Shown: piece after piece, positions 43,690 to 63,943 of the stretch
How positions within the stretch are numbered: the stretch's first letter is position 1
How the letters are laid out: each line of letters begins with the position of its first letter
Virus record (IMG/VR): IMGVR_UViG_3300009132_000002
Strand: one strand, 5' to 3'
Origin: a virus
Lineage: Duplodnaviria; Heunggongvirae; Uroviricota; Caudoviricetes
DNA length: 64,000 nucleotides
Translations under genes and position numbers: made by a program
Notes under the pieces: generated by a model
What the model saw: the letters and a program-made list of their open reading frames with translations, nothing else
Told to the model about the DNA's origin: nothing
The model's database searches: none

Positions 43690-43696
43690 TTTTCAC

Positions 43697-44611: not shown

Positions 44612-44659
44612 TCGAACACAATCATCCTTTTATTGTTTAAAATTTATAATAACTATACA

Positions 44660-44689: not shown

Positions 44690-44701
44690 CTTTTTTTTTA
44701 T

Positions 44702-44785: not shown

Positions 44786-44790
44786 AAATC

Positions 44791-44882: not shown

Positions 44883-44888
44883 CATATT

Positions 44889-44962
44889 TTGGTTGTCCTA
44901 GAAAGAATCGAACTTACATCTCACGATTATCAGTCGCGTGCTCTACCGTTGAGCTATAGGAC
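44889..44962 (-). tRNA. tRNA-Ile (anticodon GAT)
   Basis: Acceptor TGTCCTA/TAGGACA, D arm GCTC-AACGGTA-GAGC, loop CTGATAA, T-loop AGTTCGATT, CCA. Confidence 0.7.
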
Positions 44963-45377
44963 AATATTTTTTGTGGCGACACCACGGGAAGTTTAACCCG
45001 ACAGCAAATAGCAGTAAAACCAGTAACTGAACGTATGAGGTTCAATTATAAACCACTAGACTCACCACTTCCTAGGCACTGTCATGTTGTTTAACCAACA
45101 AGCTCCTAGCCACGGAAGTCTGATAACACACGTTCACAAATTCTGGTAAATTTGCTTCTATGCTTATCAGTGCCGCATTCGTATATAATTTGGTGCAGCT
45201 TACGGAATCGAACCGGGGTGATCAAGCCCATCTATCTAGAATGCCGTCCAACGGCTTCACTGCACAATTTAGTCAAAAGCAGAACATCAGGTGGGGACTC
45301 ACCCGACCCAATGTCCCAATGTGTTGTCGACAGCGCTTAGCAAATGCCAGTGGGGCAAGCCGACTGCTCTTAAGTTT

Positions 45378-45454
45378 TGGCTCCCTACTGAGGATTCGAA
45401 CCTCAAACACACAGATTAACAGTCTGCCGCCCCTGCCAATAGGGCCCCTAGGGA
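45378..45454 (-). tRNA. tRNA-Asn (anticodon GTT)
   Basis: D stem GCCC/GGGC, anticodon arm GCAGA-CTGTTAA-TCTGT, T arm TGAGG-TTCGAAT-CCTCA, CCA. Confidence 0.65.
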
Positions 45455-46063
45455 ATAATTCTCTTAGCTTTTTGACACGTTATTCCGTTTCATGCCTAAG
45501 TTCTTTTCAGCTAATGACTTTCAAGGTGTGCGTATTATGCGCTGGCCAACTCGGAACCCCGTTCGCACTCATTTGTATTTTCGTCAACACCCAATCTTTT
45601 CTCTTCCCCCTCACACAAGGAACGATGAGTTCGCAATCACGCTTATCATTATTCCTATAAAGAGCAGGTGTGCTGTGATAAAATAGAGTATCAATCCAAA
45701 TCGTGCTACCTCTACACTATAGGAGCCATAGCCCCTAGCAGGGATCGAACCTACGCCTATCCGGAGATGATACTCTACATTATCCTATACACCAGTTAAA
45801 CTTTTTTAACACCGTCGACTGTGTAACTGGATGTTGACGAAAATACAAAACAGTTTGGTTTTCCGTATCACTGGTCACGACACCACAGTATAGAGTTATC
45901 ACATAATTACTTTAGCTGGTTAAGCTTTAGTTGTATATGTATCAACTTGTATATCAAGGGAACTGACGGGACCAACCGCCTTCATCCTATCAAGAACTTA
46001 GTCTATCTCTAGTAACTGTCCATCGCGCAACCATCCACCGCCGTAACACTGGACACGGAAACT

Positions 46064-46139
46064 TGGCTCCCCAGCGAGGATTCGAACCTCGGACCTTCCG
46101 GTTAACAGCCGGCTGCTCTACCACTAAAGCTACTGGGAA
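46064..46139 (-). tRNA. tRNA with anticodon GTT (second Asn-like copy, identity uncertain)
   Basis: Acceptor TTCCCAG/CTGGGGA, D arm GCTT-TAGTGGTA-GAGC, loop CTGTTAA, T arm CGAGG-TTCGAAT-CCTCG, CCA. Confidence 0.5.
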
Positions 46140-46150
46140 AAATTCTTTTT

Positions 46151-46226
46151 TGGCGCTCCCGGAAGGACTCGAACCCTCAACCTCTTAGTTCGTAGCCAAG
46201 TGCTCTTCCAATTGAGCTACGGAAGC
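46151..46226 (-). tRNA. tRNA-Arg (anticodon ACG)
   Basis: Acceptor GCTTCCG/CGGGAGC, anticodon arm CTTGG-CTACGAA-CTAAG, T-loop GGTTCGAGT, CCA. Confidence 0.7.
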
Positions 46227-46235
46227 ATTTATTAT

Positions 46236-46310
46236 TGGTGCTATGGGGAGGGATCGAACCCCCGACACCAGGATCTTCAATCCTGTGTTCTACCTCTGAA
46301 CTACCATAGC
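46236..46310 (-). tRNA. tRNA-Phe (anticodon GAA)
   Basis: Acceptor GCTATGG/CCATAGC, anticodon arm CAGGA-TTGAAGA-TCCTG, T-loop GGTTCGATC, CCA. Confidence 0.75.
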
Positions 46311-46317
46311 GTAATTT

Positions 46318-46393
46318 TGGTACGGGATAAAGGAGTCGAACCTATGACCTTCTGTGTGTAAAACAGCTGCTCTACCAACTGAGCTAATCCCGC
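46318..46393 (-). tRNA. tRNA-Val (anticodon TAC)
   Basis: D arm GCTC-AGTTGGTA-GAGC, anticodon arm CTGT-TTTACAC-ACAG, T-loop GGTTCGACT, CCA. Confidence 0.6.
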
Positions 46394-46466
46394 TCTAATA
46401 GCAAACTTTTTAGAAGGGTAGTCTTTCCCCACTGTTTACCAGATATGTAAACGACTTTTTGTTTCT

Positions 46467-46958
46467 TCATTCTATTAGATTCTTTATATAATCTGTGCGG
46501 CCGTGAGCAACACCATCTGCTCCAAAGCTGGCTGCCCAACTTTCTGGCTTAAGCTTAGGTTCGATCCCTGTCATTCCAAGAACATAACCTGCTGCTTCAC
46601 TGGCCGCACAGTTTGAACCATGACGCGGGTCGGTGTTAATATCAAGATGTATCTCGATATCAAACTCGTCAATAAATGGTCCAATTTGAGTATATAATTC
46701 ACAAACTTTTTGAACTTCTTTCATCATCCGCATTTTGGGACGATTTGCTTTCATATCATAGTCTGGTTCACGTGAAGTATGAGAAAATATTTTACAACCT
46801 TTATTGCCATTTTTATGAATAATAGCAACAGTAGCATATCGAGCCATTTTACGCCCTTTAATATATCTTACTGAATCACAACCAAGATATACCTTTGTGT
46901 TTTCATCACATTCTACTAGTATATCAACCATTTCTTCGATCTGATTTTGTGTAAACAT
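46467..46958 (-). CDS. hypothetical protein (163 aa) embedded in the tRNA island
   Basis: ORF track; flanked by tRNA genes on both sides; possible RNase-H-like fold (speculative). Confidence 0.5.
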   Translation of the reverse strand: MFTQNQIEEMVDILVECDENTKVYLGCDSVRYIKGRKMARYATVAIIHKNGNKGCKIFSHTSREPDYDMKANRPKMRMMKEVQKVCELYTQIGPFIDEFDIEIHLDINTDPRHGSNCAASEAAGYVLGMTGIEPKLKPESWAASFGADGVAHGRTDYIKNLIE

Positions 46959-46993
46959 TTTCTTATTCCATTTATGTGTTACGAATTACTTTT

Positions 46994-47067
46994 TGGATGC
47001 CCGCTGAGGGGTCGAACCTCAATTTCTTGATCCAAAATCAAGCGTCCTGCCATTAGACGACCGGGCA
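46994..47067 (-). tRNA. tRNA-Gln (anticodon TTG)
   Basis: D arm GTCT-AATGGCA-GGAC, anticodon arm CTTGA-TTTTGGA-TCAAG, T arm TGAGG-TTCGACC-CCTCA, CCA. Confidence 0.75.
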
Positions 47068-47070
47068 TTA

Positions 47071-47163
47071 TGGCGGAAGCGCTGAGAGTTGAACTCAATG
47101 GAAGGATCACTCCCACACTTGGTTTAGCAAACCAGTCCTAAGACCACTTAGATTGTCACTTCC
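47071..47163 (-). tRNA. tRNA-Ser (anticodon GCT), type II
   Basis: Acceptor GGAAGTG/CGCTTCC, loop TTGCTAA, long variable arm, T-loop AGTTCAACT, CCA. Confidence 0.6.
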
Positions 47164-47168
47164 ATTTT

Positions 47169-47245
47169 TGGTCAGGGTAAGAGGATTCGAACCCCTGGCT
47201 TCCGCAGCCCAAGTGCGGCGCTCTACCAGACTGAGCTATACCCTG
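47169..47245 (-). tRNA. tRNA-Pro (anticodon TGG)
   Basis: D arm GCTC-AGTCTGGTA-GAGC, anticodon arm CCGCA-CTTGGGC-TGCGG, T-loop GGTTCGAAT, CCA. Confidence 0.75.
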
Positions 47246-47484
47246 AAAATTCTTACGCCGTTTGGATTCGATACCAAATCTCCCCACCCGTGGGGGCGCT
47301 TTATCATAAGCTAACGGCAGCCACTATATCTTTCTTGAATGAGCTCTTTAGACTTTACTCAATATAATGGATTAACTAAAACTAACTTTTATTTTTTGTG
47401 CAGGTCTCTCCCTGCTTGTCACCGTTACCCTTACGGTCTGGGTAGGGTGCGACCCTACGATCCTAACATTCTATTCTATGGTTT

Positions 47485-47560
47485 TGGTCCCATCTTCTGG
47501 ATTTGAACCAGAGCCTTCTGATCCACAATCAGACGTGCTTACCACTAACACTAAGATGGA
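47485..47560 (-). tRNA. tRNA-His (anticodon GTG)
   Basis: Anticodon arm TCTGA-TTGTGGA-TCAGA, T arm TCTGG-TTCAAAT-CCAGA, CCA. Confidence 0.75.
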
Positions 47561-47565
47561 ATAAT

Positions 47566-47640
47566 TGGAGCGGGCAATGAGATTCGAACTCACGACATCG
47601 GACGTGGAAGGACCGCGCTCTACCACTGAGCTACACCCGC
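47566..47640 (-). tRNA. tRNA-Gly (anticodon TCC)
   Basis: Acceptor GCGGGTG/TGCCCGC, D arm GCTC-AGTGGTA-GAGC, loop CTTCCAC, T-loop AGTTCGAAT, CCA. Confidence 0.55.
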
Positions 47641-48084
47641 AATTAATTGGCGACCCGTTAGCTGCACACCGTTGGAATGATGTTCGCAACCCCTATCGTA
47701 ATAGGATTTAATTCTCGCAGTAAAATGCCACGGGTCAACAGCATTGTTTACTGGGTTTTAATGCAGGTCTGAGATTACAACCTGTACAGAAAGTCTTTGG
47801 TCATTACCCTATCCCTTGCGAGGAAGGTTCTACCGTTATCCACTGAGCGCCTTACGGCTATCTCAGTAACTTTCAACGCTGCCTTTTTTAAGGAGTGGCT
47901 TTTCTCCTATCATATGCTGCTATTCATCTATCTATATCCCGTCTGCTTTGCACAGCAGTTCACAATCGCTAAATCGTTACGTTTTCAATTTAAATAACTA
48001 CATTCACCTTGCGGGTTTCAGTAGACCACATTCTTCTAGTGAAGTGTGGTATTAAGCGCCTTTCACAGCATACTGGAACAGTCT

Positions 48085-48159
48085 TTCGCTTTTTTGGTTC
48101 ACAGAGTAGGATTTGAACCTACAACCTATTGTTTTCAAGACAATCGCTCTACCGTTGAG
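48085..48159 (-). tRNA. tRNA-like gene, anticodon TGA on a type-I (short variable arm) body, weak acceptor stem; possible pseudogene or unusual decoder
   Basis: D arm GCTC-AACGGTA-GAGC, anticodon arm ATTGT-CTTGAAA-ACAAT, T arm GTAGG-TTCAAAT-CCTAC, CCA; acceptor TCACTAA vs TCTGTGA has two mismatches. Confidence 0.35.
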
Positions 48160-48630
48160 CTATTAGTGAGAAACCTATTAAGATGCGCTGCTCCAGTTGC
48201 TCCATATTTTGTTAAATACAGAATACAACACACCTTCTGTCTTTTGCCTTGCGGGCTACTTGACGTTACTTCGAGACTATTTCTCTAGTAATGCTATAAC
48301 GCCTTTCTACGCAAATAGTCAGACTATATAACTACCTGTTAGTATTCGACATTCAACGAATTGGTATGTCATAGCAAAACCACCACAGTTTTTTTAATCC
48401 TCAGCGATCGCCTCCGGACCTATCCTTTCGGACTATAACTTCGTTTTACTGCCTACCACCTATTACTAATAGATGGGCTTTCTTTCGGATTGGCATAAAT
48501 GCGTCCGAGTAAAGCTAACCCAGGCTTGTTTAGATGGACTCATATTGAGCGGTGACACTTAGGTATATCACCTTTGGGTGTATTGCTACACTTACCCTTT
48601 TTGTATGGATGCTAAACCACCCAGTAATTT

Positions 48631-48705
48631 TGGTATTCCGTAGGGGAATCGAACCCCTCTTTCCAGGTTGAAAACCTAGCGTCCTAACCGATAGACGAAC
48701 GGAAC
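48631..48705 (-). tRNA. tRNA-Glu (anticodon TTC)
   Basis: Acceptor GTTCCGT/ACGGAAT, loop TTTTCAA, T arm AGGGG-TTCGATT-CCCCT, CCA. Confidence 0.65.
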
Positions 48706-48750
48706 ATTATTTATATTATAGAGATATATTAAACTATTTTTACTAGATTG
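48700..48750 (-). promoter_or_regulatory. early promoter cassette for tRNA transcription; about 55-nt near-identical copy of the 50255 cassette
   Basis: Plus aaactatttttactagattgtaaacccctaaaatgtactttttt. Confidence 0.5.
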
Positions 48751-48783
48751 TAAACCCCTAAAATGTACTTTTTTATTTTTTAT

Positions 48784-48858
48784 TGGAGCGGGTAGTGGGA
48801 CTCGAACCCACGACCTTTTCATTGGCAACGAAATGCTCTACCTCTGAGCTACACCCGC
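48784..48858 (-). tRNA. tRNA-Gly (anticodon GCC)
   Basis: Acceptor GCGGGTG/TACCCGC, D arm GCTC-AGAGGTA-GAGC, anticodon arm TTTCG-TTGCCAA-TGAAA, T-loop GGTTCGAGT, CCA. Confidence 0.75.
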
Positions 48859-48989
48859 AATTTCCTTAATATACATGTTGCTAACAAACCTTGTGACCCG
48901 ATATGTTATTTCAGTCACCGCTTCTAGGTAATATCTAATACTGAAATCAAGTACTTAAAAATCAATATCACGATATACAACATGTATTT

Positions 48990-49064
48990 TGGCGACCATG
49001 ACGGGAATCGAACCCGCTGCGACAGCATAGACAGTGCTGCTTCCCACCATAGGAACCCATGGCC
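48990..49064 (-). tRNA. tRNA-Asp (anticodon GTC)
   Basis: Acceptor GGCCATG/CATGGTC, anticodon arm CAGCA-CTGTCTA-TGCTG, T-loop GGTTCGATT, discriminator G, CCA. Confidence 0.75.
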
Positions 49065-49509
49065 AATTAAATTCAGCTTTAACAAAGATACACTATCTAC
49101 TTCAAAACCAATCTTCAGTTATACAGAACCAACTGTACAGGGCAACTAAACCCTTAGTGTATCTATGATAGAGCATCTAAACTACCCGAACGGCGTATAG
49201 CCTATCCCCGTGCCAGTGGCAAAAATGATAGTGTAGATCCTTATTCGGTCCCATCAAATACGCTCCTACACTTCACGCCCTTTAGATCAGGCACTTTCTT
49301 GGAACGTATATGGTGGAACCGCTAGGTACTGCCTCAACAAAGATACACCACAAATGGTCTAGCCGTTCCACCCGAGGCCTCTAGTGTAGCGGGGTGGTGC
49401 ATCTTTATTGAGGCAGCTAAGTACTGCCTTAAAAAGATAACACTAAGAGCCCATATCTCCGATGAAGGAACGCTCCAAAGGGTGGGAATCGAACCCACTA
49501 GTGTTATTA

Positions 49510-49585
49510 TGGTGGAGAATAGCGGGCTCGAACCGCTGACCCTCTGCTTGCAAAGCAGATGCTCTCCCAACTGAGCTAATTCCCC
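49510..49585 (-). tRNA. tRNA-Ala (anticodon TGC)
   Basis: Acceptor GGGGAAT/ATTCTCC with G3-T70 pair, D arm GCTC-AGTTGGGA-GAGC, anticodon arm TCTGC-TTTGCAA-GCAGA, T-loop GGTTCGAGC, CCA. Confidence 0.75.
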
Positions 49586-49681
49586 ATTACTAAAAACACT
49601 TGCTGGACACCATGTTATCGTTCCAGGTTTACCTTGCGGCTCAGGTGATCCAATCCTTACGGTCTCGGACAAGTGTTATTT

Positions 49682-49757
49682 TGGAGCCCTTGACAGGAAT
49701 CGAACCTGTTATCTTCTGGTTACAAATCAGTTGCTTCGCCAGCAAAGCTTCAAGGGC
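49682..49757 (-). tRNA. tRNA-Thr (anticodon TGT), tentative; anticodon stem weak
   Basis: Acceptor GCCCTTG/CAAGGGC, D arm GCTT-TGCTGGCG-AAGC, loop TTTGTAA, T arm ACAGG-TTCGATT-CCTGT, CCA. Confidence 0.45.
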
Positions 49758-49769
49758 AATTGTAATTCT

Positions 49770-49843
49770 TGGTTGCGCCGGATGGATTTGACACCACCAG
49801 TTCAAGATTATGAGTCTTGCGTGTTACTTGACACTACTGCGCA
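49770..49843 (-). tRNA. tRNA with anticodon CAT (Met, fMet or Ile2), atypical T-loop
   Basis: Anticodon arm CAAGA-CTCATAA-TCTTG, D arm GTGT-CAAGTA-ACAC, T region GGTGG-TGTCAAAT-CCATC, CCA. Confidence 0.55.
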
Positions 49844-49850
49844 TCAATAT

Positions 49851-49932
49851 TGGTGCTAGCGGAAGGAATCGAACCTACTCCCCTTACGGAACCCGTTATG
49901 AGCGGGTGGCCTACCCAATTGGCATCACTAGC
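49851..49932 (-). tRNA. tRNA with anticodon CAT on a type-II-like body (3-bp D stem, 12-nt variable arm); unusual
   Basis: Acceptor GCTAGTG/CGCTAGC, D arm GCC-AATTGGGTA-GGC, anticodon arm ACCCG-CTCATAA-CGGGT, variable TCCGTAAGGGGA, T arm GTAGG-TTCGATT-CCTTC, CCA. Confidence 0.5.
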
Positions 49933-49942
49933 ATATTCTATT

Positions 49943-50027
49943 TGGTGCCTCCACCCAGACTCGAACTGGGACGCCCGAAGGCGGCAAATTTTAAGTCTGC
50001 TGCGTCTACCTATTTCACCATGGAGGC
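49943..50027 (-). tRNA. tRNA-Leu (anticodon TAA), type II
   Basis: Acceptor GCCTCCA/TGGAGGC perfect, anticodon arm GCAGA-CTTAAAA-TTTGC, variable arm hairpin CGCCTTCGGGCG, T arm CCCAG-TTCGAGT-CTGGG, CCA. Confidence 0.7.
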
Positions 50028-50035
50028 ATTATTTT

Positions 50036-50109
50036 TGGCATCGGTAAAAAGAATCGAACTCTTATCTGCGGGGTTGGAAGCCGCCGTGTTACCATTACAC
50101 TACACCGAC
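50036..50109 (-). tRNA. tRNA-Trp (anticodon CCA)
   Basis: D arm GTGT-AATGGTA-ACAC, anticodon arm GCGGC-TTCCAAC-CCCGC, T-loop AGTTCGATT, CCA. Confidence 0.65.
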
Positions 50110-50254
50110 TCTCTGTTTTCAATTACATACTTAGCAAATATGCACGTGAAAACAGAGATATTTTTCTGTTTCCAATCTATTATCGAGTTTCCTCTAAGAT
50201 CAAGCCCAAATTTTCAAATAACGTTGTAACAATTTTCTTTTTTGTTACTATAAA

Positions 50255-50300
50255 GATATACTAAACTATTTTTACTAGATTGTAAACCCCTAAAATGTAC
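50255..50300 (-). promoter_or_regulatory. early promoter cassette at the upstream end of the tRNA island
   Basis: Plus aaactatttttactagattgtaaacccctaaaatgtactttttt. Confidence 0.5.
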
Positions 50301-50325
50301 TTTTTTCACTTTTTTTTATTTTTTG

Positions 50326-50360
50326 CAAAAAAAAATCTCCTCAACTTACGTTGGGAGATT
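50326..50360 (-). terminator. minus-strand intrinsic terminator (AATCTCC / GGAGATT stem, then T9 on the minus strand)
   Basis: Plus caaaaaaaaatctcctcaacttacgttgggagatt. Confidence 0.55.
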
Positions 50361-50600
50361 CGAATGTTTAAAAGTTAATACTTTACTTTATTCGTGTATC
50401 CCCCATTCGGCAATCCCGCGATCTGTCTCAATCATAAACGCATAGCCGCAATTGGTCGCCGGTTTTACCGTCGATAATGGTTGCCATGAATTGAGTCTAT
50501 GTATTGAAAACATTTTTTCTTGTATCTCCTTTGATACTATTATATATACATTTTTTTAGTTATTTTGTACATAATATTATATTTTTTTTTTATTAAATTG

Positions 50601-50858
50601 CTAATAAACTGCTGCCCAAATATCAGCACTAAAGATGCGTAGCCTAGGATACATAGATATAATAATATCACGCGCAGTAATATCATACTTACATTTAAGA
50701 CAACTAATAGGACACTTAAGTATTATATCCTCAAAGACTTCATCTGGACAATTATCAACAGTATAAGGAATTAATAAACACTCTCCTGCTTTAGATTGTT
50801 CAATATTCGCTTCTTCACATTTTGGACATACAATTGTCACTTCATCAAACATACCCAT
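50601..50858 (-). CDS. zinc-ribbon protein (CxxC...CxxC...CxxC), 85 aa
   Basis: IVCPKCEE, CP...CLKCKYDI. Confidence 0.45.
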   Translation of the reverse strand: MGMFDEVTIVCPKCEEANIEQSKAGECLLIPYTVDNCPDEVFEDIILKCPISCLKCKYDITARDIIISMYPRLRIFSADIWAAVY

Positions 50859-51065
50859 TTTAAAATTGCTCCATTAAAGCTTTATTTTTTTCTTGTTAAA
50901 AGATCAAGAACGATAGTCAACTCATATATAGCTTTATCTAAAACTAAGTGAGCAGTTCTATTGTTGTTCTTTTTCTTTTCATCTCGTAGCATCTCTAGTC
51001 TTACTTTTATATATGCCTCTGTTTTATCACGCATATTTTGTATCTTTCTTAATTAACAAAACTTA

Positions 51066-51138
51066 GGCTCCGGCGGTAGGACTCGAACCTACTAGCAGTC
51101 GACTGCAGTCAATTGCTCTAGCCCAGTGCTACGCTGGA
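51066..51138 (-). tRNA. tRNA-like sequence with intact T arm and acceptor but disrupted anticodon arm (probable pseudogene); no CCA
   Basis: T arm GTAGG-TTCGAGT-CCTAC, acceptor TCCAGCG/CGCCGGA with one mismatch; internal direct repeat GACTGCAGTC-GACTGC where the anticodon arm should be. Confidence 0.35.
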
Positions 51139-51343
51139 ATAATTTAGGGTGGAGCCACCACAGTTGGACTCCAGTGTTAGGATTTCGACAAATAGGGTCT
51201 GTTTGCAACCATCCACCTAAAGTGTACCTAACTCTATGCAATTAGATAAATTTTGAAATACACGCGCCTTGATAACCTCTCGGCTCTTGTCCTATGCACA
51301 GGAAAGCAGGTGCATCTACTCCCGCGTGTACATCAAAATTTAT

Positions 51344-51420
51344 TGGCGGTCCCTGCAGGACTCGAACCTGCAACCTACTGCTTAGAAGGCAGTTGCTCTA
51401 TCCAATTGCGCTAAGGAACC
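51344..51420 (-). tRNA. tRNA-Arg (anticodon TCT), second copy with a different body
   Basis: Acceptor GGTTCCT/AGGGACC perfect, D arm GCGC-AATTGGATA-GAGC, anticodon arm ACTGC-CTTCTAA-GCAGT, T arm GCAGG-TTCGAGT-CCTGC, CCA. Confidence 0.7.
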
Positions 51421-55230: not shown

Positions 55231-56028
55231 TTATAACCATCCAGATGCTTTTACAATTTTTCTTATATTACTATCCATTACGTCATTAAACTCTTCATCA
55301 GATTGTGGATATTTTAATCCTTCACTTAGTGCTCTACTAAAGCTTGCTGAGACTCCTCTATTCCGTGACATTCTTTTACATGCTTCTTTTGTGGAATATC
55401 CGCCACTGAGGAATACCACTTTGGCATTTGGTAGCAAAGTAAAATATTCATATAAATTTGGTTTTTCTGGTGGCGTAACTTTTAATATATACCGACCCTG
55501 AAACTTATTCAGTTTTGTTTCTAAATATGCTGATAAAAGATTTTCTATTTGCTCTTTCCAAGGATTGTCAATAGGAACTTCTGGTTCTATAATAGGAACT
55601 AATCCAGATTCTGCTATTTTTTCTGCATACATTATTTGTTGTTTTACTACTGGTATTACCATGTTTTCAGATATTACTATACTTCTCATTTTAGTTCCAA
55701 AACAACCATGATAGCAGGCGTATTGTATCATATCATCAACATCAAAAGGTTTTAAAGTTCCATCAGGTTCGCAGCCCTCATCAATCTTAATAATACTACG
55801 AATCCACTTTTTATCTAAAACATCAACAGCACCTCTTTCGACACTATCCTTATAAAGAATGGCACCATATATATTTTCACTTGTAAATTCTGGAGCAGAC
55901 ATCATTCTAAGACGAAACTCATGGATACGCTCCATTTTATTTTTCTCGTCCCATTCTCTATCATATAGATCAAGAACACCACCGGCACTACCACCACTAT
56001 TATCCATAGCTGCGATAAAATTACCCAT
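55231..56028 (-). CDS. class I fructose-bisphosphate aldolase-family protein (short, 265 aa)
   Basis: IAAMDNSGGS (compare ILAADESTG), IYGAILYKDSV (compare ISGVILFEETL), VVFLSGGYSTKEA (compare ITFLSGGQSEEEA). Confidence 0.55.
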   Translation of the reverse strand: MGNFIAAMDNSGGSAGGVLDLYDREWDEKNKMERIHEFRLRMMSAPEFTSENIYGAILYKDSVERGAVDVLDKKWIRSIIKIDEGCEPDGTLKPFDVDDMIQYACYHGCFGTKMRSIVISENMVIPVVKQQIMYAEKIAESGLVPIIEPEVPIDNPWKEQIENLLSAYLETKLNKFQGRYILKVTPPEKPNLYEYFTLLPNAKVVFLSGGYSTKEACKRMSRNRGVSASFSRALSEGLKYPQSDEEFNDVMDSNIRKIVKASGWL

Positions 56029-56571: not shown

Positions 56572-57270
56572 TTAACTCCTTGTAGTAGTTGATTTAAGAC
56601 CTTGTATATGAGTATAGAATTTTCTAGTTACTCCTAATCCATTTACAAGTTGTCGACACATAAGTGCATCATTCGGCCACATGCCATATCTATAAACCAA
56701 AGAAATCATTTGTTCTGCTCCTTCTGGTTTTATAAGGTATGCTGAGTTTCCAGCAAGTCCTTGAGGAACTTTCATATCCTCATCCACGTAAGGTGTTAGC
56801 TGAAATGCTTGTTTATTTTTTACTACCGTATTATAATATTCTCTTGCCCTACGAGTAGCACCAAGAGGATTATTTAAACCAACAATATCGAACCCCGTAT
56901 CATCTGGTATAAAATCTATTTTTTGAGCAAAATAAGCATCATGCTCTAATATGATAATAGGCTGTCTTCTTTCAAAGCAGAGTTGCCATAAGTAAAAATG
57001 GCTCATGGCACATGCCATTCTTGCCTTTGGATTAGCAGTTATATAGGCATGCTTTGTAAGACCTGTTGAAAAATCCACAACAGAACCTTCCCAAGGATAG
57101 TTCCATGTAACATCTTGATCTCGCATATCTTTTTCAACGGTATCAGGAGTAATGGCTTTAAACTGTTTTAGTTTAAATTCATTACCTACATCATATGAAC
57201 TTTTAGCTAAAGCGGCATATCCAAATTCAGATATTTCATTACCTTCAATTACTATAGCATAAGCTTCCAT
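56572..57270 (-). CDS. glycosyltransferase family 25-like, paralog 2
   Basis: MEAYAIVIEGN...CAMSHFYLWQLCFERRQPIIILEHDAYF. Confidence 0.55.
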   Translation of the reverse strand: MEAYAIVIEGNEISEFGYAALAKSSYDVGNEFKLKQFKAITPDTVEKDMRDQDVTWNYPWEGSVVDFSTGLTKHAYITANPKARMACAMSHFYLWQLCFERRQPIIILEHDAYFAQKIDFIPDDTGFDIVGLNNPLGATRRAREYYNTVVKNKQAFQLTPYVDEDMKVPQGLAGNSAYLIKPEGAEQMISLVYRYGMWPNDALMCRQLVNGLGVTRKFYTHIQGLKSTTTRS

Positions 57271-57281
57271 TTTAAAACCTA

Positions 57282-57602
57282 TTATCCTTTCTCATCAGTA
57301 TGGAACAAAATTCTATAATTTGGCCAATACGTTTGTGGTTTACACTGACAATAGTCATCAACATCACCAACAATATTTGGCACTTTCATAATCTCATAAT
57401 CAACACCCATTTTATAATTTCGTAATGCTAATATTATCTGGTGTCTAACCTCAGAATAATCATAAGAACTATTATTCGTATCCCTAACTTGAATGAGTAT
57501 TTGTCCTGTTTGTTTCCAAGCTTCCTCGAATATTTCAGTATCTTCTTTTTCCCAAGGTGCCCTTGCTAGCATTTGAATTGTTGGCTTTTGATAATCAAAC
57601 AT
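57282..57602 (-). CDS. hypothetical protein (106 aa)
   Basis: ORF track. Confidence 0.4.
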   Translation of the reverse strand: MFDYQKPTIQMLARAPWEKEDTEIFEEAWKQTGQILIQVRDTNNSSYDYSEVRHQIILALRNYKMGVDYEIMKVPNIVGDVDDYCQCKPQTYWPNYRILFHTDEKG

Positions 57603-57605
57603 TAT

Positions 57606-57750
57606 TTTTTCCCATTATAAAATTTCTTTTTCTTAATAAAATCTATAGAAATATAAATTCCAAGAATTATGAAACAACCAATGATCCAAATTGGCCAAAT
57701 CATATTAATGAATGTTCTATGCATCTTCTTCTTGTATTCAATAGTCATTA
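57606..57750 (-). CDS. small membrane protein (about 48 aa), below ORF-track cut-off
   Basis: MTIEYKKKMHRTFINMIWPIWIIGCFIILGIYISIDFIKKKKFYNGKK; early promoter cassette at about 57770-57795 points at it. Confidence 0.3.
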
Positions 57751-57764
57751 TTCTTTATACCACA

Positions 57765-57800
57765 GTTACGAGTAAAAGTAAACCCCTAAAATGCATTTAG
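57765..57800 (-). promoter_or_regulatory. early promoter cassette
   Basis: Plus gtaaaagtaaacccctaaaatgca. Confidence 0.4.
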
Positions 57801-57814
57801 CATAAGCTTCCATT

Positions 57815-58498
57815 TTAAAATCCGTGACTCATATTTAAATTTTTTAAAGTAAAAGTAAAATACTCAGGAACTACATATTGAATGTGAACATTGTGTGTAT
57901 TGATAAAAAAGTCACTTTGTTCCCATCCATGTTTCTTAACGGCACTTAGAAGCTTTTTGGCTCCTTTTGGATTAATTGCATAAGCAGCTGTTCCAGGAAT
58001 CATTAAAGAGTTCTTCCAAGTTCTGTTTGGATGTCTATATGGAATAGGAGAATCATTATAATCATTAATTCCTAATCTCCAAGAATTATTATAACCTAAA
58101 CTACTAAGGTGTTTAAACACTTGTTGTTTAAAAGCGCTTTCAATGTTTAATATTAACAATTCATCAAAAATATTATTTTTCCAAGGCCGAATGCAATCTG
58201 AATCTTGTTCTATAAATGCAACCGGTTCATTTAATTCGATGCATTTTTTCCATACTCTTATATGATTATTAAAACATGATTTCTTAGTTCTATATATCCC
58301 ATTTTTATCTTCTTTAAAAAAAGCGGCAGCTCTTGAACCTTCCGCAGTTGGTATATCATCGTAACTATCTAATGTTTCAGGTGTAACCCCTTTTATGGGT
58401 TCTACATCCCATCCATACCGTTTGCAACTTTCCATACAATATTTCATATAAGATTCTGAAGCTTTATGACCTTCTACATATATCACAAACGTTTTCAT
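57815..58498 (-). CDS. glycosyltransferase family 25-like, paralog 3
   Basis: MKTFVIYVEGH...VAFIEQDSD pattern similar to the other two paralogs. Confidence 0.55.
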   Translation of the reverse strand: MKTFVIYVEGHKASESYMKYCMESCKRYGWDVEPIKGVTPETLDSYDDIPTAEGSRAAAFFKEDKNGIYRTKKSCFNNHIRVWKKCIELNEPVAFIEQDSDCIRPWKNNIFDELLILNIESAFKQQVFKHLSSLGYNNSWRLGINDYNDSPIPYRHPNRTWKNSLMIPGTAAYAINPKGAKKLLSAVKKHGWEQSDFFINTHNVHIQYVVPEYFTFTLKNLNMSHGF

Positions 58499-59055
58499 CT
58501 TTTAAACCTATAGATTTTTGAATTTTTTTCTTTATTTTTAAAAGCTCCAATAAAGGTTAATCCAACATTAGTGGCCAATTCTAAAAGTTCTTGTTCACTT
58601 AACTCTAAAGGATCTGTAGATCTTGAAAGATTATTTTCTCCCCATCCCCATTCAATATATAATGATCCATTGGGTAAAAGCTGATCAGCCCAAGTCTGAA
58701 TGCATTTTTGAGGATCATAAGAATGATCAAATGAGTTTGAATATACTATATTAAATTTATTAAGCCATTCTTCTTTTGGTTCGTGAAAATCATGCTGTAT
58801 AGTCATCGGAAACTGAGATGCCGTATGAGATATTTCAGTTCCAATTATTTCTGCCATTTTAAAATGATCTTTAAAATACTCTTGTTCTCTTGCATTTCTA
58901 GTGCCATGGCAAAGGATTGCTGATGCTGTAAAATTTTCTTTACAGATTTTATTAATCACATCTTTTCTAACCCACACAGCTTTTAATTTTTTAACATTAG
59001 CCCGAGTTTGTTCAGAAACATATTCTTCATAATTTTTATACTTATAAATTTTCAT
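58495..59055 (-). CDS. putative class I SAM-dependent methyltransferase
   Basis: ILCHGTRNAREQ, NIVYSNSFDH, LLPNGSLYI motif-like segments. Confidence 0.4.
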   Translation of the reverse strand: MKIYKYKNYEEYVSEQTRANVKKLKAVWVRKDVINKICKENFTASAILCHGTRNAREQEYFKDHFKMAEIIGTEISHTASQFPMTIQHDFHEPKEEWLNKFNIVYSNSFDHSYDPQKCIQTWADQLLPNGSLYIEWGWGENNLSRSTDPLELSEQELLELATNVGLTFIGAFKNKEKNSKIYRFKR

Positions 59056-59056
59056 A

Positions 59057-59653
59057 CTATTTCCTTTTTATAGTAGCATGACCACATTTTCCAAGAGTAT
59101 AATGTTCATACATTCTCCACTCTTTATGTTCTTTTAAAAAAGTTTCCACTACTTTCCAAAGTTGAAATTGTGTTCCATTCATTGGGTTTCCAAGCTTTGT
59201 GTCATGTAAAGTAATAAATTTAGAAACACTTTTATGATGCAAATATAGTTCTTTTTTTAGGTGTTGTGGATTGTGCCAGCTATCAATATGTAGAAGATCA
59301 ACTTCTCGCACACTTTCTTCACTTATAGAGCTTGCTTCAATTAGTTCAAAGTTTATGTTATTCTTATCAGCATACTCCTGAAATATTTTTTTGAGTTTAG
59401 GAGTAAATCTATTTAAATTAATATCAACACCGTGAATACTTTTTATTCCTTGTTGCATAAAAAGTGCCATAGTCCTACCCTGAAAAACACCTAGTTCAGA
59501 AACGGTTTCTACTTTTTTTCCAAGTTTTATTAAATGCTTATATCTCTCAGTATCATGAATTCCATTGTCTGTGGCAGTGAATATTTCTTCATTAAGAATA
59601 AACTGACTCAAGTCCTCTAGTGAATTAAATACACTATAGTCACCTTCTTTCAT
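59057..59653 (-). CDS. TylF/MycF/CmcI-family (Methyltransf_24-like) sugar O-methyltransferase
   Basis: VSELGVFQGRT (motif I), LLHIDSWH, ITLHD. Confidence 0.5.
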   Translation of the reverse strand: MKEGDYSVFNSLEDLSQFILNEEIFTATDNGIHDTERYKHLIKLGKKVETVSELGVFQGRTMALFMQQGIKSIHGVDINLNRFTPKLKKIFQEYADKNNINFELIEASSISEESVREVDLLHIDSWHNPQHLKKELYLHHKSVSKFITLHDTKLGNPMNGTQFQLWKVVETFLKEHKEWRMYEHYTLGKCGHATIKRK

Positions 59654-59996
59654 TGCTCTTTACCTCTTTTATATCTTTATTGAAGAATTTAAATTGTAAC
59701 TTCTTCTTTATTTCATATCTTTCACTATTTAATTCATCTATTACTGATGCTAGTATTAGATTAGGATCTTTTCTTATTATTTCAAGCTTATCATAAATTT
59801 CTTCATTTAATCTAATAAGTTCTTTATATTCTTCTGATTCAATAATATCATGAAACTTAATTCCTAATTGAAATTCTAAGCTGTCATAATAAAAAACAAG
59901 TTGTTCTTTCGCGCCATTTAATTTTTTCTTTGCTTTTACTACTGCAATGCTTAAAAAATCAAATGCAAATGCTTCATCAACTTCAATAGTAACCAT
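59640..59996 (-). CDS. hypothetical protein (118 aa)
   Basis: ORF track. Confidence 0.4.
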   Translation of the reverse strand: MVTIEVDEAFAFDFLSIAVVKAKKKLNGAKEQLVFYYDSLEFQLGIKFHDIIESEEYKELIRLNEEIYDKLEIIRKDPNLILASVIDELNSERYEIKKKLQFKFFNKDIKEVKSNERR

Positions 59997-60651
59997 GCGA
60001 CAAATACCTATTATAATTTTTCCAAGTACCCAAATCTATATATTTACCGCCTTGGACAGTAGTAAATTTAAAACTATTAACAATTGTACCGACTTCACTA
60101 TATCTATTAAATAGCCCTTGTTTAATAGCATCACTTATATTTTGTCCGTCAAATTTTAATATTCCCCAAAAATTTTCAGTAGTGTTCATATCTAATTCTG
60201 TTTTTACATAAAATTTTTCACCAAATTTATCTAACCTATCAACTTTAGATTCGGAATCTGTTACAAATAATCCGGCTACCACACCACTTTCTTTAACCAT
60301 CTGAATGTATAAATTATCTTCAAAAATGGTATCTGGCATTCCAAATAAAACTATATCATTTTCCTTTATGTTTTCTATTCTATATGCTTCATATAAAACG
60401 TTTGCAAACCCTGTTTTGGATTGCTTATAATGTTTATACTCATTAGCGGTATAGAAAGAAGTGACATCTATTTTAAAATCATCACCGTGTATAAAAATTA
60501 TTTTTTCTGCTCCGGCTTCAAGCATTTTATTAACTAAATGATTTGATATCGGATTATATAAACTTGTATCTTTTTGAGGTAACATTTCTTTTGAAAAAGT
60601 TAACCCTAATCTTGTTCCTAATCCGCCTATTGGTACAACGCCCACAATCAT
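59983..60651 (-). CDS. sugar-1-phosphate nucleotidyltransferase (GalU/RmlA-type), short form
   Basis: N-terminal VVPIGGLGTRLGLTFSKEMLPQ matches the G-x-G-T-R-x(8)-K-x-x-L-P signature of glucose-1-phosphate uridylyl/thymidylyltransferases. Confidence 0.55.
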   Translation of the reverse strand: MIVGVVPIGGLGTRLGLTFSKEMLPQKDTSLYNPISNHLVNKMLEAGAEKIIFIHGDDFKIDVTSFYTANEYKHYKQSKTGFANVLYEAYRIENIKENDIVLFGMPDTIFEDNLYIQMVKESGVVAGLFVTDSESKVDRLDKFGEKFYVKTELDMNTTENFWGILKFDGQNISDAIKQGLFNRYSEVGTIVNSFKFTTVQGGKYIDLGTWKNYNRYLSHGYY

Positions 60652-61355
60652 AATATCTTGCTTTCTCTTAACATTTTTTCAATAGTTTTATAATTATTTG
60701 TTAAAACACCATCACCATGATAATTATGGTGTTGTCTTGTTCTTATCAAAAGTTTATTTTCTATTTTATCTATAAGACAAGAACGAAGGTGAGATTCTAT
60801 GGCACCGCCCCAATCATTATCATTTCTAACAGTCATTGGTAATGGAAATAAATGCTCTATACTATTTGGAACAAATGATAATATACTAGCATTAGGATAG
60901 TAATTGCCTTTCTTATTTTTATTTTTTCTTATACCAGTTCCAAATTGTGCATATGCTAAATCATAGTTTGATTGACTTAAAATTCTAAGAGTTTCTCCTG
61001 TAGTAAAGAAATGATCTTCAGCTAATAATAATACTTTTTCATTTAGACCTCTTACTTTATTAAATATGGAGTTATACCCCTCAGTAAATATTTGAAGATT
61101 TCTTTTACCTGGAGATCCCGATGTTATTTCATCATTATCAATTTCTGGACTAGTGTTAGTGTTATTTTTAAGTTGAGTTTTTTCATAAAAAATATGATTT
61201 ACATTTTCAATCTTATCAAGAGAATTATATTCGGATTTATGATTATCATAAAAACATAGACATCTTATATCAGCATCAGGAATAAAATGTCTTATACTTT
61301 TCACTGTAAGATTAAGTGTTTTATTTCTAAAATAATTTCTTAAATATATGATCAT
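60648..61355 (-). CDS. hypothetical protein, possibly GT-A-like transferase
   Basis: ORF track; cluster context; LLLAEDHFF acidic motif. Confidence 0.35.
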   Translation of the reverse strand: MIIYLRNYFRNKTLNLTVKSIRHFIPDADIRCLCFYDNHKSEYNSLDKIENVNHIFYEKTQLKNNTNTSPEIDNDEITSGSPGKRNLQIFTEGYNSIFNKVRGLNEKVLLLAEDHFFTTGETLRILSQSNYDLAYAQFGTGIRKNKNKKGNYYPNASILSFVPNSIEHLFPLPMTVRNDNDWGGAIESHLRSCLIDKIENKLLIRTRQHHNYHGDGVLTNNYKTIEKMLRESKIL

Positions 61356-62020
61356 TTATTTACCATTTTTTTAAAAAAATGACCTCTTCTGTTACTACCA
61401 TCTAAATGTTTAACTGTGGCAGGTAAATTAACTGTCCCGTATATCGAACCTTTAAAGTTTTCTACTGCAGTTAAATTCTGTTCAACACCACCTCTTTGAC
61501 CTTCTGGTGGAACAGTTATATGCGGAAGACCTTTCTTTATAAATTTTTCTCTATGTATTAAATGAGGATTATTTGATACTGCATCTGTCAAACAATAATC
61601 GTTTTTTATGATAAGATTTTTATCCCACTTGATTGCTAATGTTTGCCTTTTATTAAATCTCATGTGGATTAAATTATTATCATTCATAATTTTACAAATA
61701 TTATCTAAACTATGTGATATATGTTTTTTATTAAAAATCCAATCATGTTCTAACATAAATAAGAAATCGCTTTTAGATTCATTAACTGCTCTAATATATC
61801 CATCTGCAAAACAAGTTGTAGTATTTACCTTTGTAAAAATACTTTTAAGGTTTTTTTCATATATTTTAAATGATGATTTATTTGGTTTTGGGTCGCACCA
61901 AACAGTAGCATTCATACTACCAAAAGTTTCACAAAAGCTATTATATGTTGTTTTTATAGTATCAATATTTGGTGCATATTGTGTACAATTTGTGAAGATA
62001 TGAAGTTCTATATTATACAT
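61352..62020 (-). CDS. hypothetical protein, possibly transferase
   Basis: ORF track; cluster context; FMLEHDWIF. Confidence 0.35.
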   Translation of the reverse strand: MYNIELHIFTNCTQYAPNIDTIKTTYNSFCETFGSMNATVWCDPKPNKSSFKIYEKNLKSIFTKVNTTTCFADGYIRAVNESKSDFLFMLEHDWIFNKKHISHSLDNICKIMNDNNLIHMRFNKRQTLAIKWDKNLIIKNDYCLTDAVSNNPHLIHREKFIKKGLPHITVPPEGQRGGVEQNLTAVENFKGSIYGTVNLPATVKHLDGSNRRGHFFKKMVNK

Positions 62021-62021
62021 T

Positions 62022-63167
62022 TTACCACTTTGGAGAATTTAATATAACATCTTTATTAACTTTTTCCTTTGTGGAATCAGCAATAAAGAGAATGTCGTCA
62101 ATTAAACCATCACTTAACAATGTTGGTTTAAAACCTAAAGAAATAAGACCAGAGTTTTCAACCTCTAACTCATTCTTTGTAAGTTCCTTTCTTGGGTTTT
62201 CAAGATAATTTATCTCAACGTTGGCTTTTGATGAAATCATTTCGGCTAATTCTTTAACTGATCTTGTTTCAGCCACTTGGTTAAATATTCTCACTCTTTC
62301 AGTGTTATCAGGTCTATTTTCTAATGCAAGTTGTATACACTTAACACTATCTTTAATGTGTATAAAAGCTCTTGTTTGCCCACCAGTTCCGTAAACTGTT
62401 ATATTGTTTCCACTAGCCGCTTGCGAAATAAATCTGTTTAAAACCGTACCATATAATCCATCATAATCAAATCTATTAATGAGTTTATCATCTGCCTTTG
62501 TTTCGTCTGTTTGTACACCCCAAACCACACCTTGATGCAAATCTGTTATTGCTAAATTCCAATTCTTATTATAAAATTGAAATAGTATTTGATCTAAACT
62601 TTTTGTCATATGGTAAACACTACCGGGGTTTGTAGGATATAAAATATCCACATCCTTTTGTGTAGAATTAATCTTAATATTTAAATAACCTTCCGGCAGT
62701 TTTCCAAAGTCTTTACTATATCCATATACACCCATTGTACCAAGATGCACTAAATGAATATTTTTATCAACTTCTACAATAGCATTAAGAATATTATGCG
62801 TTGCACTTATATTTTTATCAACAGTTGATCTTCTTTCTCTTTCACCTAACATTGAATATGGTGCAGATTTTAATTCAGCTAAGTGAACTACTGCATCAGG
62901 CATGTACTTCTTAAATATATTTTCTAATCTTAAGTAATCTCCAGCAATATCACAAAACTCAAAATTTATTTTTCCAAAAATATTTTTTGCAGTTTTAAGT
63001 CTTACACCTATTGATTCAAGATCAGTTAAACTGTTACTTGACATTTCATCATCAAGTGCTCTGCGTGAAAAATTATCAACAATTGTAACCTCATGGCCTG
63101 CTGAAACTAATTTTAAGGTTGTTGGCCATCCACAAAATCCATCGCCTCCGAGCATTAATATTTTCAT
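62022..63167 (-). CDS. sqdB: UDP-sulfoquinovose synthase (SqdB/SQD1) homolog, SDR-family sugar-nucleotide enzyme
   Basis: Full-length collinear match to plant SQD1: MKILMLGGDGFCGW (SQD1 VMVIGGDGYCGW), APYSM, HLVHLGTMGVYG, DLHQGVVWGVQTDET (SQD1 DLNQGVVYGVKTDET), FDYDGLYGTVLNRFISQAASG..ITVYGTGGQTRAFIHIKDSVKCIQLAL. Confidence 0.8.
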   Translation of the reverse strand: MKILMLGGDGFCGWPTTLKLVSAGHEVTIVDNFSRRALDDEMSSNSLTDLESIGVRLKTAKNIFGKINFEFCDIAGDYLRLENIFKKYMPDAVVHLAELKSAPYSMLGERERRSTVDKNISATHNILNAIVEVDKNIHLVHLGTMGVYGYSKDFGKLPEGYLNIKINSTQKDVDILYPTNPGSVYHMTKSLDQILFQFYNKNWNLAITDLHQGVVWGVQTDETKADDKLINRFDYDGLYGTVLNRFISQAASGNNITVYGTGGQTRAFIHIKDSVKCIQLALENRPDNTERVRIFNQVAETRSVKELAEMISSKANVEINYLENPRKELTKNELEVENSGLISLGFKPTLLSDGLIDDILFIADSTKEKVNKDVILNSPKW

Positions 63168-63943
63168 TCAACTAATTCCCTCAATTGTTCCACATTCTCA
63201 CCTCTATTTGGAAGATGATCTTTTAAGAAGAAATGAACAAAGTGGCATTCTTTAATGCGAGTATTAGCAGTAAACAATCCGTTCCATCTCCAGTCCATAT
63301 TTTTAATTTTCATATTTTCTTCACGAATCCATGTATTTAATAGTGTTTGATCGGTAGACCATTTCCAAGCACCCATACCATCAACAAATGGTTTAAACTC
63401 TGGTCGCCGAATAAACTGTGTTGGAGTTTCTCCTCTTAGATATTTTTGGATCTTTTGGTTCATAACCATAATACCCATATTCATAAACTCAGCACCAAGA
63501 TTATTCCATTTCCAATCCACTTTCTTAATAGTCTGATATTGCATACGTGAATAGTTTGCAATCTTACCTTTATACTGATTTGTAATAGGCATCTCACGTT
63601 CCACAACACCACCAAAATCATACTGTGGTTCTAAATCATCAAAGATATTTGGAGCACCAGGACGAATCCATACATCAGCATCTACTATAGCTACTTGATC
63701 ATATGACTTAAGATATGAGAAGGCATTTTCTTTTTCATAGATTGGTAAGTAACCACCATGTTTTTCATATGATTCTCGGCTACGGTTTGTTACAAACACG
63801 TCTGGTTTAATCATGAGTATGGGAGTTTTTTGTACTTCGTGTACGATACCGTGTGCTTTACAGTATTCTGCTACTGAGTTAACACAATGGTCATAGAGTT
63901 TTGAACGCTTTCCAACGTACACCTGATAAATCAATCGTTTCAT
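63164..63943 (-). CDS. putative GT-A glycosyltransferase (DXD: IVDADVWI)
   Basis: ORF track; DxD motif; sigma70-like promoter at about 63975-64000 upstream. Confidence 0.45.
   Translation of the reverse strand: MKRLIYQVYVGKRSKLYDHCVNSVAEYCKAHGIVHEVQKTPILMIKPDVFVTNRSRESYEKHGGYLPIYEKENAFSYLKSYDQVAIVDADVWIRPGAPNIFDDLEPQYDFGGVVEREMPITNQYKGKIANYSRMQYQTIKKVDWKWNNLGAEFMNMGIMVMNQKIQKYLRGETPTQFIRRPEFKPFVDGMGAWKWSTDQTLLNTWIREENMKIKNMDWRWNGLFTANTRIKECHFVHFFLKDHLPNRGENVEQLRELVE

Follow-up and report, generated by a model that had tools for sequence, protein, structure and literature searches.

Why does a tailed phage encode an enzyme of sulfolipid biosynthesis, and what would its product be used for during infection? 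This question is raised by a gene near the end of a 64,000-nucleotide stretch (hereafter the window) of the IMG/VR virus record IMGVR_UViG_3300009132_000002, the product of which was recognized in a first-pass annotation as a homolog of the UDP-sulfoquinovose synthases, SQD1 of plants and SqdB of bacteria. We argue below that this gene, sqdB, adds a viral member to an established enzyme family, the new element being a clade of T4-like phages that carry it in a cassette context, and that the sugar it would supply is most likely destined for an anionic glycan that varies among strains and not for the sulfolipid sulfoquinovosyl diacylglycerol (SQDG).

The phage protein belongs to the SQD1/SqdB family

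In the list of open reading frames (ORFs) of the window sqdB starts with an ATG, and the plus-strand frame over the same interval is riddled with stop codons (coordinates of all features are given in Table 1). A phmmer search with its product against all PDB chains recovered Arabidopsis SQD1 (1qrr, 1i24, 1i2b) at the top, with residues 2-381 of 381 aligned (E 3e-83; 283 bits; 41.7% identity over 372 aligned columns). The UDP-glucuronate decarboxylases come second, at 57 bits (E 2e-14), and the matches to GalE and RmlB are weaker still. The similarity to SQD1 far exceeds chance, and a lead of about 230 bits sets the protein apart from generic epimerases and dehydratases, best hits to which would have spoken against the first-pass annotation. 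The full-length alignment to SQD1/SqdB that had been made by eye is likewise borne out: it is nearly gapless, and the motifs GGDGFCGW (residues 7-14), SAPYSM (101-106), LGTMGVYG (142-149), DLHQGVVWGVQTDET and the YD..YGT.LNRF...TVYG.GGQTR...I.D.V.C block were all found. Its sequence places the protein in the SQD1/SqdB family; with SQD1 it shares the GxxGxxG, T-M-G, Y-H-x-x-K, SAPYSM, LNRF and GGQTR elements, and with bacterial and cyanobacterial SqdB the length and 52-62% identity.

Pfam detects only the generic Epimerase and GDP_Man_Dehyd domains, and the top NCBIfam model is NF041015, the UDP-sulfoquinovose synthase equivalog (344 bits, followed by RmlB at 55 bits). The curated cutoff of this model is 575 bits, and we considered the shortfall as an argument against membership. 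However, six cellular homologs used as a control (from two cyanobacteria, Rhodovulum, Paramylibacter, a SAR116 metagenome-assembled genome (MAG) and Oceanobacillus, thus including cyanobacterial and sqdBDC-linked proteins) score 335-346 bits. Since the cutoff shuts out ordinary bacterial SqdB, the score of the phage protein is no evidence against its membership, and we dropped the argument; the model itself seems to be centered on a different subgroup, possibly one that resembles Agl3.

The catalytic triad of SQD1 comprises Thr145, Tyr182 and Lys186, and the family is marked by the fingerprint [ST]MG...Yx3K, in place of which the 4,6-dehydratases have [ST]DE or [ST]DK (PMC8987622, Table 1). 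This fingerprint is intact in the phage protein (T144-M145-G146 and Y185-H186-M-T-K189), as is the NAD-binding GxxGxxG motif (G7-G-D-G10-F-C-G13, aligned with GGDGYCGW of SQD1), and His96, Tyr149 and His183 of SQD1 are matched by H95, Y148 and H186. At SQD1 positions 148, 208 and 213 the phage protein has Val (V147), His and Trp in place of Glu, Asn and Tyr. We considered these replacements as anomalies and dropped them as such, since the same three residues are found in 80 of 80 homologs from bacterial genomes, including sqdX-linked and sqdBDC-linked genes, and thus represent the bacterial state.

The annotation of sqdB as a phage gene is upheld by the rest of the window, in which all the large ORFs lie on the minus strand. 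PHROGs profiles identify among them a T4-type major head protein (E 9e-162), portal (E 3e-190), scaffold, tail sheath, large terminase, helicase and SbcC-like nuclease, and a gp44-type clamp loader is also encoded. The closest catalogued capsid and portal proteins are those of Phage C48C1 (Kyanoviridae, host field empty; 65-66%), followed by those of Pelagibacter phage HTVC008M, Mosig and the Methylophilales phage Melnitz (51-61%) and then of cyanomyophages (50-59%). By these comparisons the window is part of a marine-type T4-like myovirus. It shares with the pelagimyophages this general type, a GC content of about 33% and a GT8-rich variable region (Zaragoza-Solas et al. 2020, PMC7029224). 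It differs from them in its portal and capsid proteins, with 51-61% identity to theirs, in its 26 tRNA genes and in the sulfo-sugar gene, the string "sulfo" having 0 occurrences in the pelagimyophage paper (PMC7029224). The GC content of sqdB (0.33) is the same as that of the rest of the phage, and the gene is under purifying selection, with a ratio of nonsynonymous to synonymous substitution rates (dN/dS) of 0.06 against an 80% identical relative; this is the single usable value, as dS is saturated in all but the closest pair and is near saturation even there (2.3).

sqdB is cargo of an exchangeable cassette

We compared the window with a 177.5-kb contig of a close relative, L172, using blastn and tblastn. 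The flanking segments of the window (64000-63164 and 57292-52690) match this contig at 82-93% nucleotide and 83-99% protein identity, and a gene for a glycosyltransferase of the GT8 type immediately upstream of sqdB is 99% identical in the two. Between this GT8-like gene and a gene for a GT25 glycosyltransferase on the other flank there is essentially no nucleotide match, and L172 has no sqdB. Its place is taken by an alternative cassette (L172:10777-15948) with genes for proteins of 234, 223, 388, 273, 212, 190 and 188 aa. Since L172 holds a different cassette between matching flanks, sqdB is the cargo of an exchangeable island of about 5.9 kb. Pelagimyophages possess a hypervariable glycosyltransferase region, rich in GT8 genes, with clusters of the lipopolysaccharide (LPS) type that vary among close relatives, and a role in host surface modification has been proposed for it (PMC7029224). 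The defining elements of such a region, namely a T4-like core, GT8-like and GT25 genes and the swap in L172, are all found in the window.

In 42 viral loci sqdB has the GT8-like gene on its upstream side. In the reciprocal survey, starting from the GT8-like gene, 13 loci had sqdB, 34 lacked it within at least 6 kb and 33 were too short to judge. We had considered this gene as a dedicated partner comparable to SqdD and dropped that candidate, both for the 34 loci without sqdB and for its marginal similarity to the SqdD candidate of Rhodovulum (E 0.03); the gene is instead an anchor at the edge of the island. More convincing as partners are the genes of the island that move together with sqdB, and two of these stand out. 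The first, in phages that have the usual E-Q-R motif in SqdB, encodes a protein of 269 aa that is paralogous to the GT8-like one (hhalign 99.4%, E 4e-21). It occurs in 29 of 61 sqdB-positive as against 2 of 34 sqdB-negative loci (Fisher p 2e-5) and lies directly downstream of sqdB in 17 loci. The second belongs to the subclade of the window phage, in which this motif reads E-L-K (see below): a gene for a 222-aa GT2-like protein directly follows sqdB in the window type and in its relatives L160 (80%) and L246 (76%). We regard its product as the likeliest candidate for a sulfoquinovosyltransferase of the ELK lineage.

In strain variants of the window phage that are 99.4-99.6% identical to it over sqdB and the downstream genes, and 90-96% over the other shared segments, a gene of the carbohydrate sulfotransferase family Sulfotransfer_2 (29 bits, above the gathering score, which is 22) is inserted as a polymorphism between the GT8-like gene and sqdB (L164:2320-2988; L167:190-858), and homologs of it recur in five further viral cassettes (L039, L074, L036, L078 and L020). 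The corresponding block of L160 additionally has RfaE-like, heptose-epimerase-like and UDP-glucose-dehydrogenase genes. Such gene content is indicative of a pathway for a glycan of the LPS or lipooligosaccharide (LOS) type or for a wall polymer, as in the hypervariable regions of pelagimyophages (PMC7029224).

A viral clade of SqdB proteins

None of 50,697 catalogued phage records has an SQD1-like gene, their best matches being generic epimerases with 23-27% identity. IMG/VR has 79 loci with sqdB homologs. In the protein database the window protein has one 100% identical cluster and three at 76-80%, followed by a large set at 61-69%. The long contigs with sqdB are T4-like, with genes for RNR, RNase H, SegE, PhoH, Phage_DsbA and Clp, and the gene is found in such contexts on dozens of divergent viral contigs with lengths of up to 174 kb. 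Among the representative genomes of GTDB, scanned with exact query peptides, by which lineages can be missed, the best match is Paramylibacter ulvae (62%), and all others are at 51-56%. In a tree the window protein, those of 35 IMG/VR loci and 43 metagenome clusters, sampled from roughly 120 hits with at least 61% identity, fall in one 81-leaf clade that is nested within the bacterial SqdB diversity and includes Paramylibacter as its sole genome. The sqdB of P. ulvae (L080; NZ_BMZF01000002.1, 6001-8881) is flanked on either side by an Stf0-type sulfotransferase gene, and its product has Gln in place of His96; its placement suggests an exchange of the gene between phage and bacterium in either direction. 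Outside the T4-like clade, SQD1-like genes with about 50-53% identity are found on giant-virus MAG contigs (L054 and L055, IMG/VR GVMAG) and on very large viral contigs of 244-286 kb (L047, L056 and L061).

Previous mention of viral UDP-sulfoquinovose synthases is sparse: a putative one on a metagenomic Mu-like virus from the Cariaco Basin was discussed as a glycosylation-related auxiliary metabolic gene (AMG) (Mara et al. 2020, PMC7785012), and beyond this we found no other report of a viral sqdB (K06118) in the literature searched. That case concerns a brief mention of a single contig from euxinic water, as against the large T4-like clade with cassette context and candidate partner transferases described here.

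A sulfonated glycan as the probable product

We favor, as somewhat more probable than all other explanations combined, an account in which sqdB encodes a working SQD1/SqdB enzyme that is carried as cassette cargo and supplies UDP-sulfoquinovose for an anionic glycan of the host envelope or virion. [quoted passage not shown] As judged from the conserved residues, the oxidation and dehydration of UDP-glucose by the phage enzyme are very probable; the addition of sulfite is likely, though less certain, mainly on account of the substitution in the motif mentioned above. The 222-aa GT2-like enzyme would then transfer the sulfoquinovose, and the GT25 and methyltransferase-like enzymes of the cassette, together with the sulfotransferase in the strain variants, would help to build an anionic sulfonated oligosaccharide on an envelope glycoconjugate of the host or on virion proteins. 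The cassette may thereby act as a serotype-like determinant, for example in superinfection exclusion or receptor masking.

A functional precedent is provided by Agl3 of Sulfolobus acidocaldarius, a UDP-sulfoquinovose synthase that supplies protein N-glycans and not a lipid (PMC4388408). Equivalents of its H95, M145, Y148, Y182 and K186 are all present in the phage protein, which has Lys and Val in place of its Arg101 and Glu147, and the acceptor pathways of the two are unrelated. From plant SQD1 the phage protein is set apart by Lys for Arg101, Leu for Gln100, the bacterial-type Val148/His208/Trp213 and a setting without plastid context or an SQD2 partner. From bacterial SqdB, with which it shares the states at the latter three positions and the NF041015 score, it is distinguished by being phage-borne in a virus-dominated clade, without SqdX, SqdD or SqdC nearby, and by ELK for EQR.

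Several observations weigh against our account. In the active site, Arg101 of SQD1 is Lys (K100) and the adjoining Gln100 is Leu (L99) in the phage protein, which turns the motif E-Q-R-S/A-APYSM into E-L-K-S-APYSM. This change escaped the first-pass annotation. Arg101, a conserved residue outside the published fingerprint, is kept in SQD1, in Agl3 and, without exception, in 249 other distinct sequences. In Agl3 its exchange for Ala (R101A) abolishes activity, as do H95A, M145A, Y182A and K186A, and E147A and Y148A impair it (PMC4388408). Lys at this position is confined to the subclade of the window phage (100, 80 and 76% relatives) and to a second viral lineage (L043/L044), where the motif reads E-I-K. 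The catalytic residues and the fingerprint are conserved, and the otherwise invariant arginine is replaced with its charge retained; this lowers, without abolishing, confidence in the same chemistry. Moreover, the GT8-like neighbor is not specific to sqdB; a motif scan of the window for a sulfite source (PAPS reductase PP-loop, ECGLH) found none; and the tree was built by neighbor-joining without support values.

The substituted enzyme might add no sulfite at all and might instead release UDP-glucose-5,6-ene or a 4-keto intermediate, or use another nucleophile, to give an unusual 6-modified sugar. This would fit the near-invariance of Arg101 and its essentiality in Agl3, which in the absence of sulfite indeed yields UDP-glucose-5,6-ene (PMC4388408). 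It would also fit the joint emergence of Q100L/I and R101K in two viral lineages and the difference in neighbors, with a 222-aa GT2-like gene next to ELK enzymes and a 269-aa GT8-like gene next to EQR enzymes. However, Arg to Lys retains the positive charge, no further alignment column switches together with R101K, and the remaining active-site residues are all kept. Furthermore, other positions essential in Agl3 vary in genes with canonical context: Rhodovulum, with sqdBDC, has Thr for Met146, and Paramylibacter has Gln for His96. We consider an altered chemistry unlikely.

Phage AMGs often consist of one bottleneck enzyme alone, and a solitary sqdB could be read in the same way, with the phage enzyme boosting SQDG synthesis and host SqdX or SqdD finishing the lipid, for phosphorus saving or membrane remodelling. 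The step catalyzed by SqdB is the committed one of that pathway (PMC13436972), and cellular homologs of the same type are linked to it: a tblastn search of 80 cellular loci, the window and the viral loci with three sqdB-adjacent GT4 proteins found an SqdX-type GT4 gene within 6 kb of sqdB in 25 of the 80. Such a gene is the common neighbor in cellular genomes, being directly downstream in 13 of 53 loci, and Rhodobacteraceae loci have sqdD and sqdC in place of sqdX (in Rhodovulum as an sqdB-GT8-SDR operon, SDR being a short-chain dehydrogenase/reductase, like sqdBDC of R. sphaeroides). The same search found no SqdX-type GT4 in the window or the main viral clade, the outlier L058 being the sole viral positive, and homologs of SqdD and SqdC were likewise absent from both and found only in L081 and L116, which leaves the sulfolipid reading without support from partner genes. 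Instead, sqdB resides in a glycosyltransferase/methyltransferase cassette that is allelic with the sqdB-less one of L172, and co-travels with GT-A glycosyltransferases and sulfotransferases. Motif scans for the cyanophage hallmarks psbA and hli found neither in the window, which covers part of the genome, and the closest capsid and portal proteins do not point to cyanophages in particular. The class-3 lipase encoded elsewhere in the window could be cited for the sulfolipid reading, but with the adjoining CHAP-domain and glycine-zipper genes it has the look of a lysis module that includes a lipase. Of the two uses that the first-pass annotation had offered for the gene, manipulation of host sulfolipid is therefore improbable in our estimate, and a sulfoquinovose-containing glycan is the one that fits the cassette context. 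Among the cellular loci, a cyanobacterial one from a Nodosilinea MAG (L083, 7993-10461) has genes for a double-rhodanese protein and a Sulf_transp transporter, and not sqdX, following sqdB; these may be a supply module for the sulfur donor.

It is very unlikely that sqdB is a passenger recently taken from a bacterium, or part of a mis-binned cellular fragment, without a function in infection. The nesting of its clade within bacterial SqdB, with Paramylibacter ulvae inside, and its residence in a hypervariable region would be in keeping with this, but the same window encodes the T4-type head, portal, sheath and terminase, the base composition matches that of the phage, the dN/dS is low, the translational coupling signals are intact and dozens of diverged T4-like viral contigs have the gene. 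T4-like phages glucosylate their DNA with UDP-glucose, and the nucleotide sugar could by analogy be destined for phage DNA, in the manner of the glucosyl-hydroxymethylcytosine of T4, and not for a glycan. DNA modification is indeed among the possible roles of phage glycosyltransferases named for the pelagimyophages (PMC7029224). However, the neighbors of sqdB are GT8, GT25 and GT2-like GT-A enzymes of LPS, LOS or wall-polymer types and not the alpha- or beta-glucosyltransferases of T4, the block of L160 has RfaE-like and heptose-epimerase-like LPS-core genes, and no hydroxymethylase turned up, although no search was aimed at one; we hold such a hypermodification to be highly improbable.

Returning to the glycan account, we extend it tentatively, and with slightly less than even confidence, to the proposal that widespread marine T4-like phages, with hosts that are possibly non-phototrophic, make UDP-sulfoquinovose at infection for a strain-variable envelope or virion glycan that sometimes additionally bears O-sulfate or methyl groups. 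The ELK (R101K/Q100L) subtype, which has a GT2-like partner of its own, could on top of this have a modified chemistry. To our knowledge, sulfoquinovose in surface glycans is so far known only from the N-glycans of Sulfolobus. If the account is true, the phages would provide the first case, for bacteria and their viruses, of a glycan that contains sulfoquinovose, and their making of UDP-sulfoquinovose would imply that the surface glycans of bacteria or viruses may include this sugar. There would then also be a marine source of sulfoquinovose beyond the lipids of phototrophs, such that infection could feed the sulfonate pool exploited by sulfoquinovose-degrading bacteria, and surveys that use sqdB (K06118) as a proxy for sulfolipid synthesis or phosphorus stress may partly count phage genes. 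With the cassette exchange, marine T4-like phages offer a concrete, testable case in which glycans would be switched in a serotype-like manner.

Genes of the cassette and other features of the window

Table 1. Features of the window discussed in the text, with the evidence for each
Feature	Coordinates	Strand	Evidence
GT8-like GT-A glycosyltransferase, 259 aa, conserved anchor at cassette edge	63164..63943	-	Pfam GT8, fold search
Variable glycan cassette, ~5.9 kb	57271..63167		unrelated ~5.2-kb cassette at the same site in L172
SQD1/SqdB-like NAD-dependent extended SDR, 381 aa, predicted UDP-sulfoquinovose synthase, ELK variant	62022..63167	-	PDB, NF041015, residue census, dN/dS
GT2-like GT-A glycosyltransferase, 222 aa	61352..62020	-	AlphaFold (AF2) and Foldseek; starts 1 nt past the sqdB stop
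Cassette gene, 235 aa, no family	60648..61355	-	no match in Pfam, NCBIfam or PHROGs; not in L172
Protein with GalU/RmlA-type N-terminal GGxGTRL motif, 222 aa	59983..60651	-	weak profile matches
Cassette gene, 118 aa	59640..59996	-	ORF; no significant family match
Methyltransferase-like gene, 198 aa	59057..59653	-	Pfam Methyltransf_24, E 0.0025, under gathering score; weak
Methyltransferase-like gene, 186 aa	58495..59055	-	Pfam Methyltransf_31, E 0.003, under gathering score; weak
GT25 glycosyltransferase, 227 aa, within variable cassette	57815..58498	-	PF01755, E 2.4e-10, over gathering score
GT25 glycosyltransferase, 232 aa, conserved cassette flank	56572..57270	-	PF01755, E 8e-14
Class-I fructose-bisphosphate aldolase-like gene	55231..56028	-	NF003784, E 3e-64 (below cutoff); PDB 2iqt, E 7e-43
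26 tRNA genes	41665..51420	-	
SPFH/Band-7 family protein, amid the tRNA genes	43697..44611	-	
Class-3 lipase	39057..40838	-	PF01764, E 5e-20
1930-aa ORF	19429..25221	-	

The genes of the cassette are tightly packed in an operon-like manner, with the stop codon of the GT8-like gene overlapping the start of sqdB (ATGA) and a 1-nt spacer after sqdB. Searches of PDB sequences brought no match for the GT8-like protein or its profile, for the sulfotransferase-like protein or for two cassette proteins of L172, and the fold search alone was informative. In the family of the 259-aa GT8-like protein, 18 of 24 members match Pfam GT8 (best E 2.7e-5), and its AlphaFold (AF2) model (pLDDT 85) recovers PBCV-1 A64R, UGGT, XXYLT1 and LgtC as top Foldseek matches. 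The model of the 222-aa GT2-like protein (pLDDT 92.4, pTM 0.88) matches B4GALNT1, SpsA, POMGNT1, TarP/TarS and RmlT (E 3e-8 to 1e-6), and E91 and D93 are invariant in its family. TarP of an S. aureus prophage and A64R of the chlorovirus PBCV-1 show that viruses can encode enzymes for the glycosylation of host wall polymers or of virions; the fold matches to TarP/TarS and A64R have TM-scores of only about 0.5 and identities of 9-16%.

Further along the cassette, the GalU-like protein matches TIGR01099 (GalU) over residues 5-68 only (E 8e-5) and GalU chains in the PDB at E 0.02-0.1; it might possibly be a sugar-1-phosphate nucleotidyltransferase that could supply a UDP-sugar. The two methyltransferase-like genes have homologs in L160, that of the 198-aa protein being 70% identical and that of the 186-aa protein having a Methyltransf_23 domain. 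The flanking GT25 gene is 90% identical in L172 and present in most of the sqdB-positive viral loci.

Adjoining the glycan genes is the aldolase-like gene, which is 83% identical in L172 and conserved in the sister phages. In the collection of isolate phages its only homologs are in two unannotated Staphylococcus phage records (38% identity), and it could represent a phage metabolic gene that has so far gone unreported. The tRNA genes cover most of the amino acids and are a large set for this phage group, counts of 0-2 being given for published pelagimyophages (PMC7029224). They account for a rise in GC to 0.42-0.44 at 44-50 kb, and a gene of the SPFH/Band-7 family is embedded among them. Finally, the 1930-aa ORF lies between the portal and tail-fiber-like genes.

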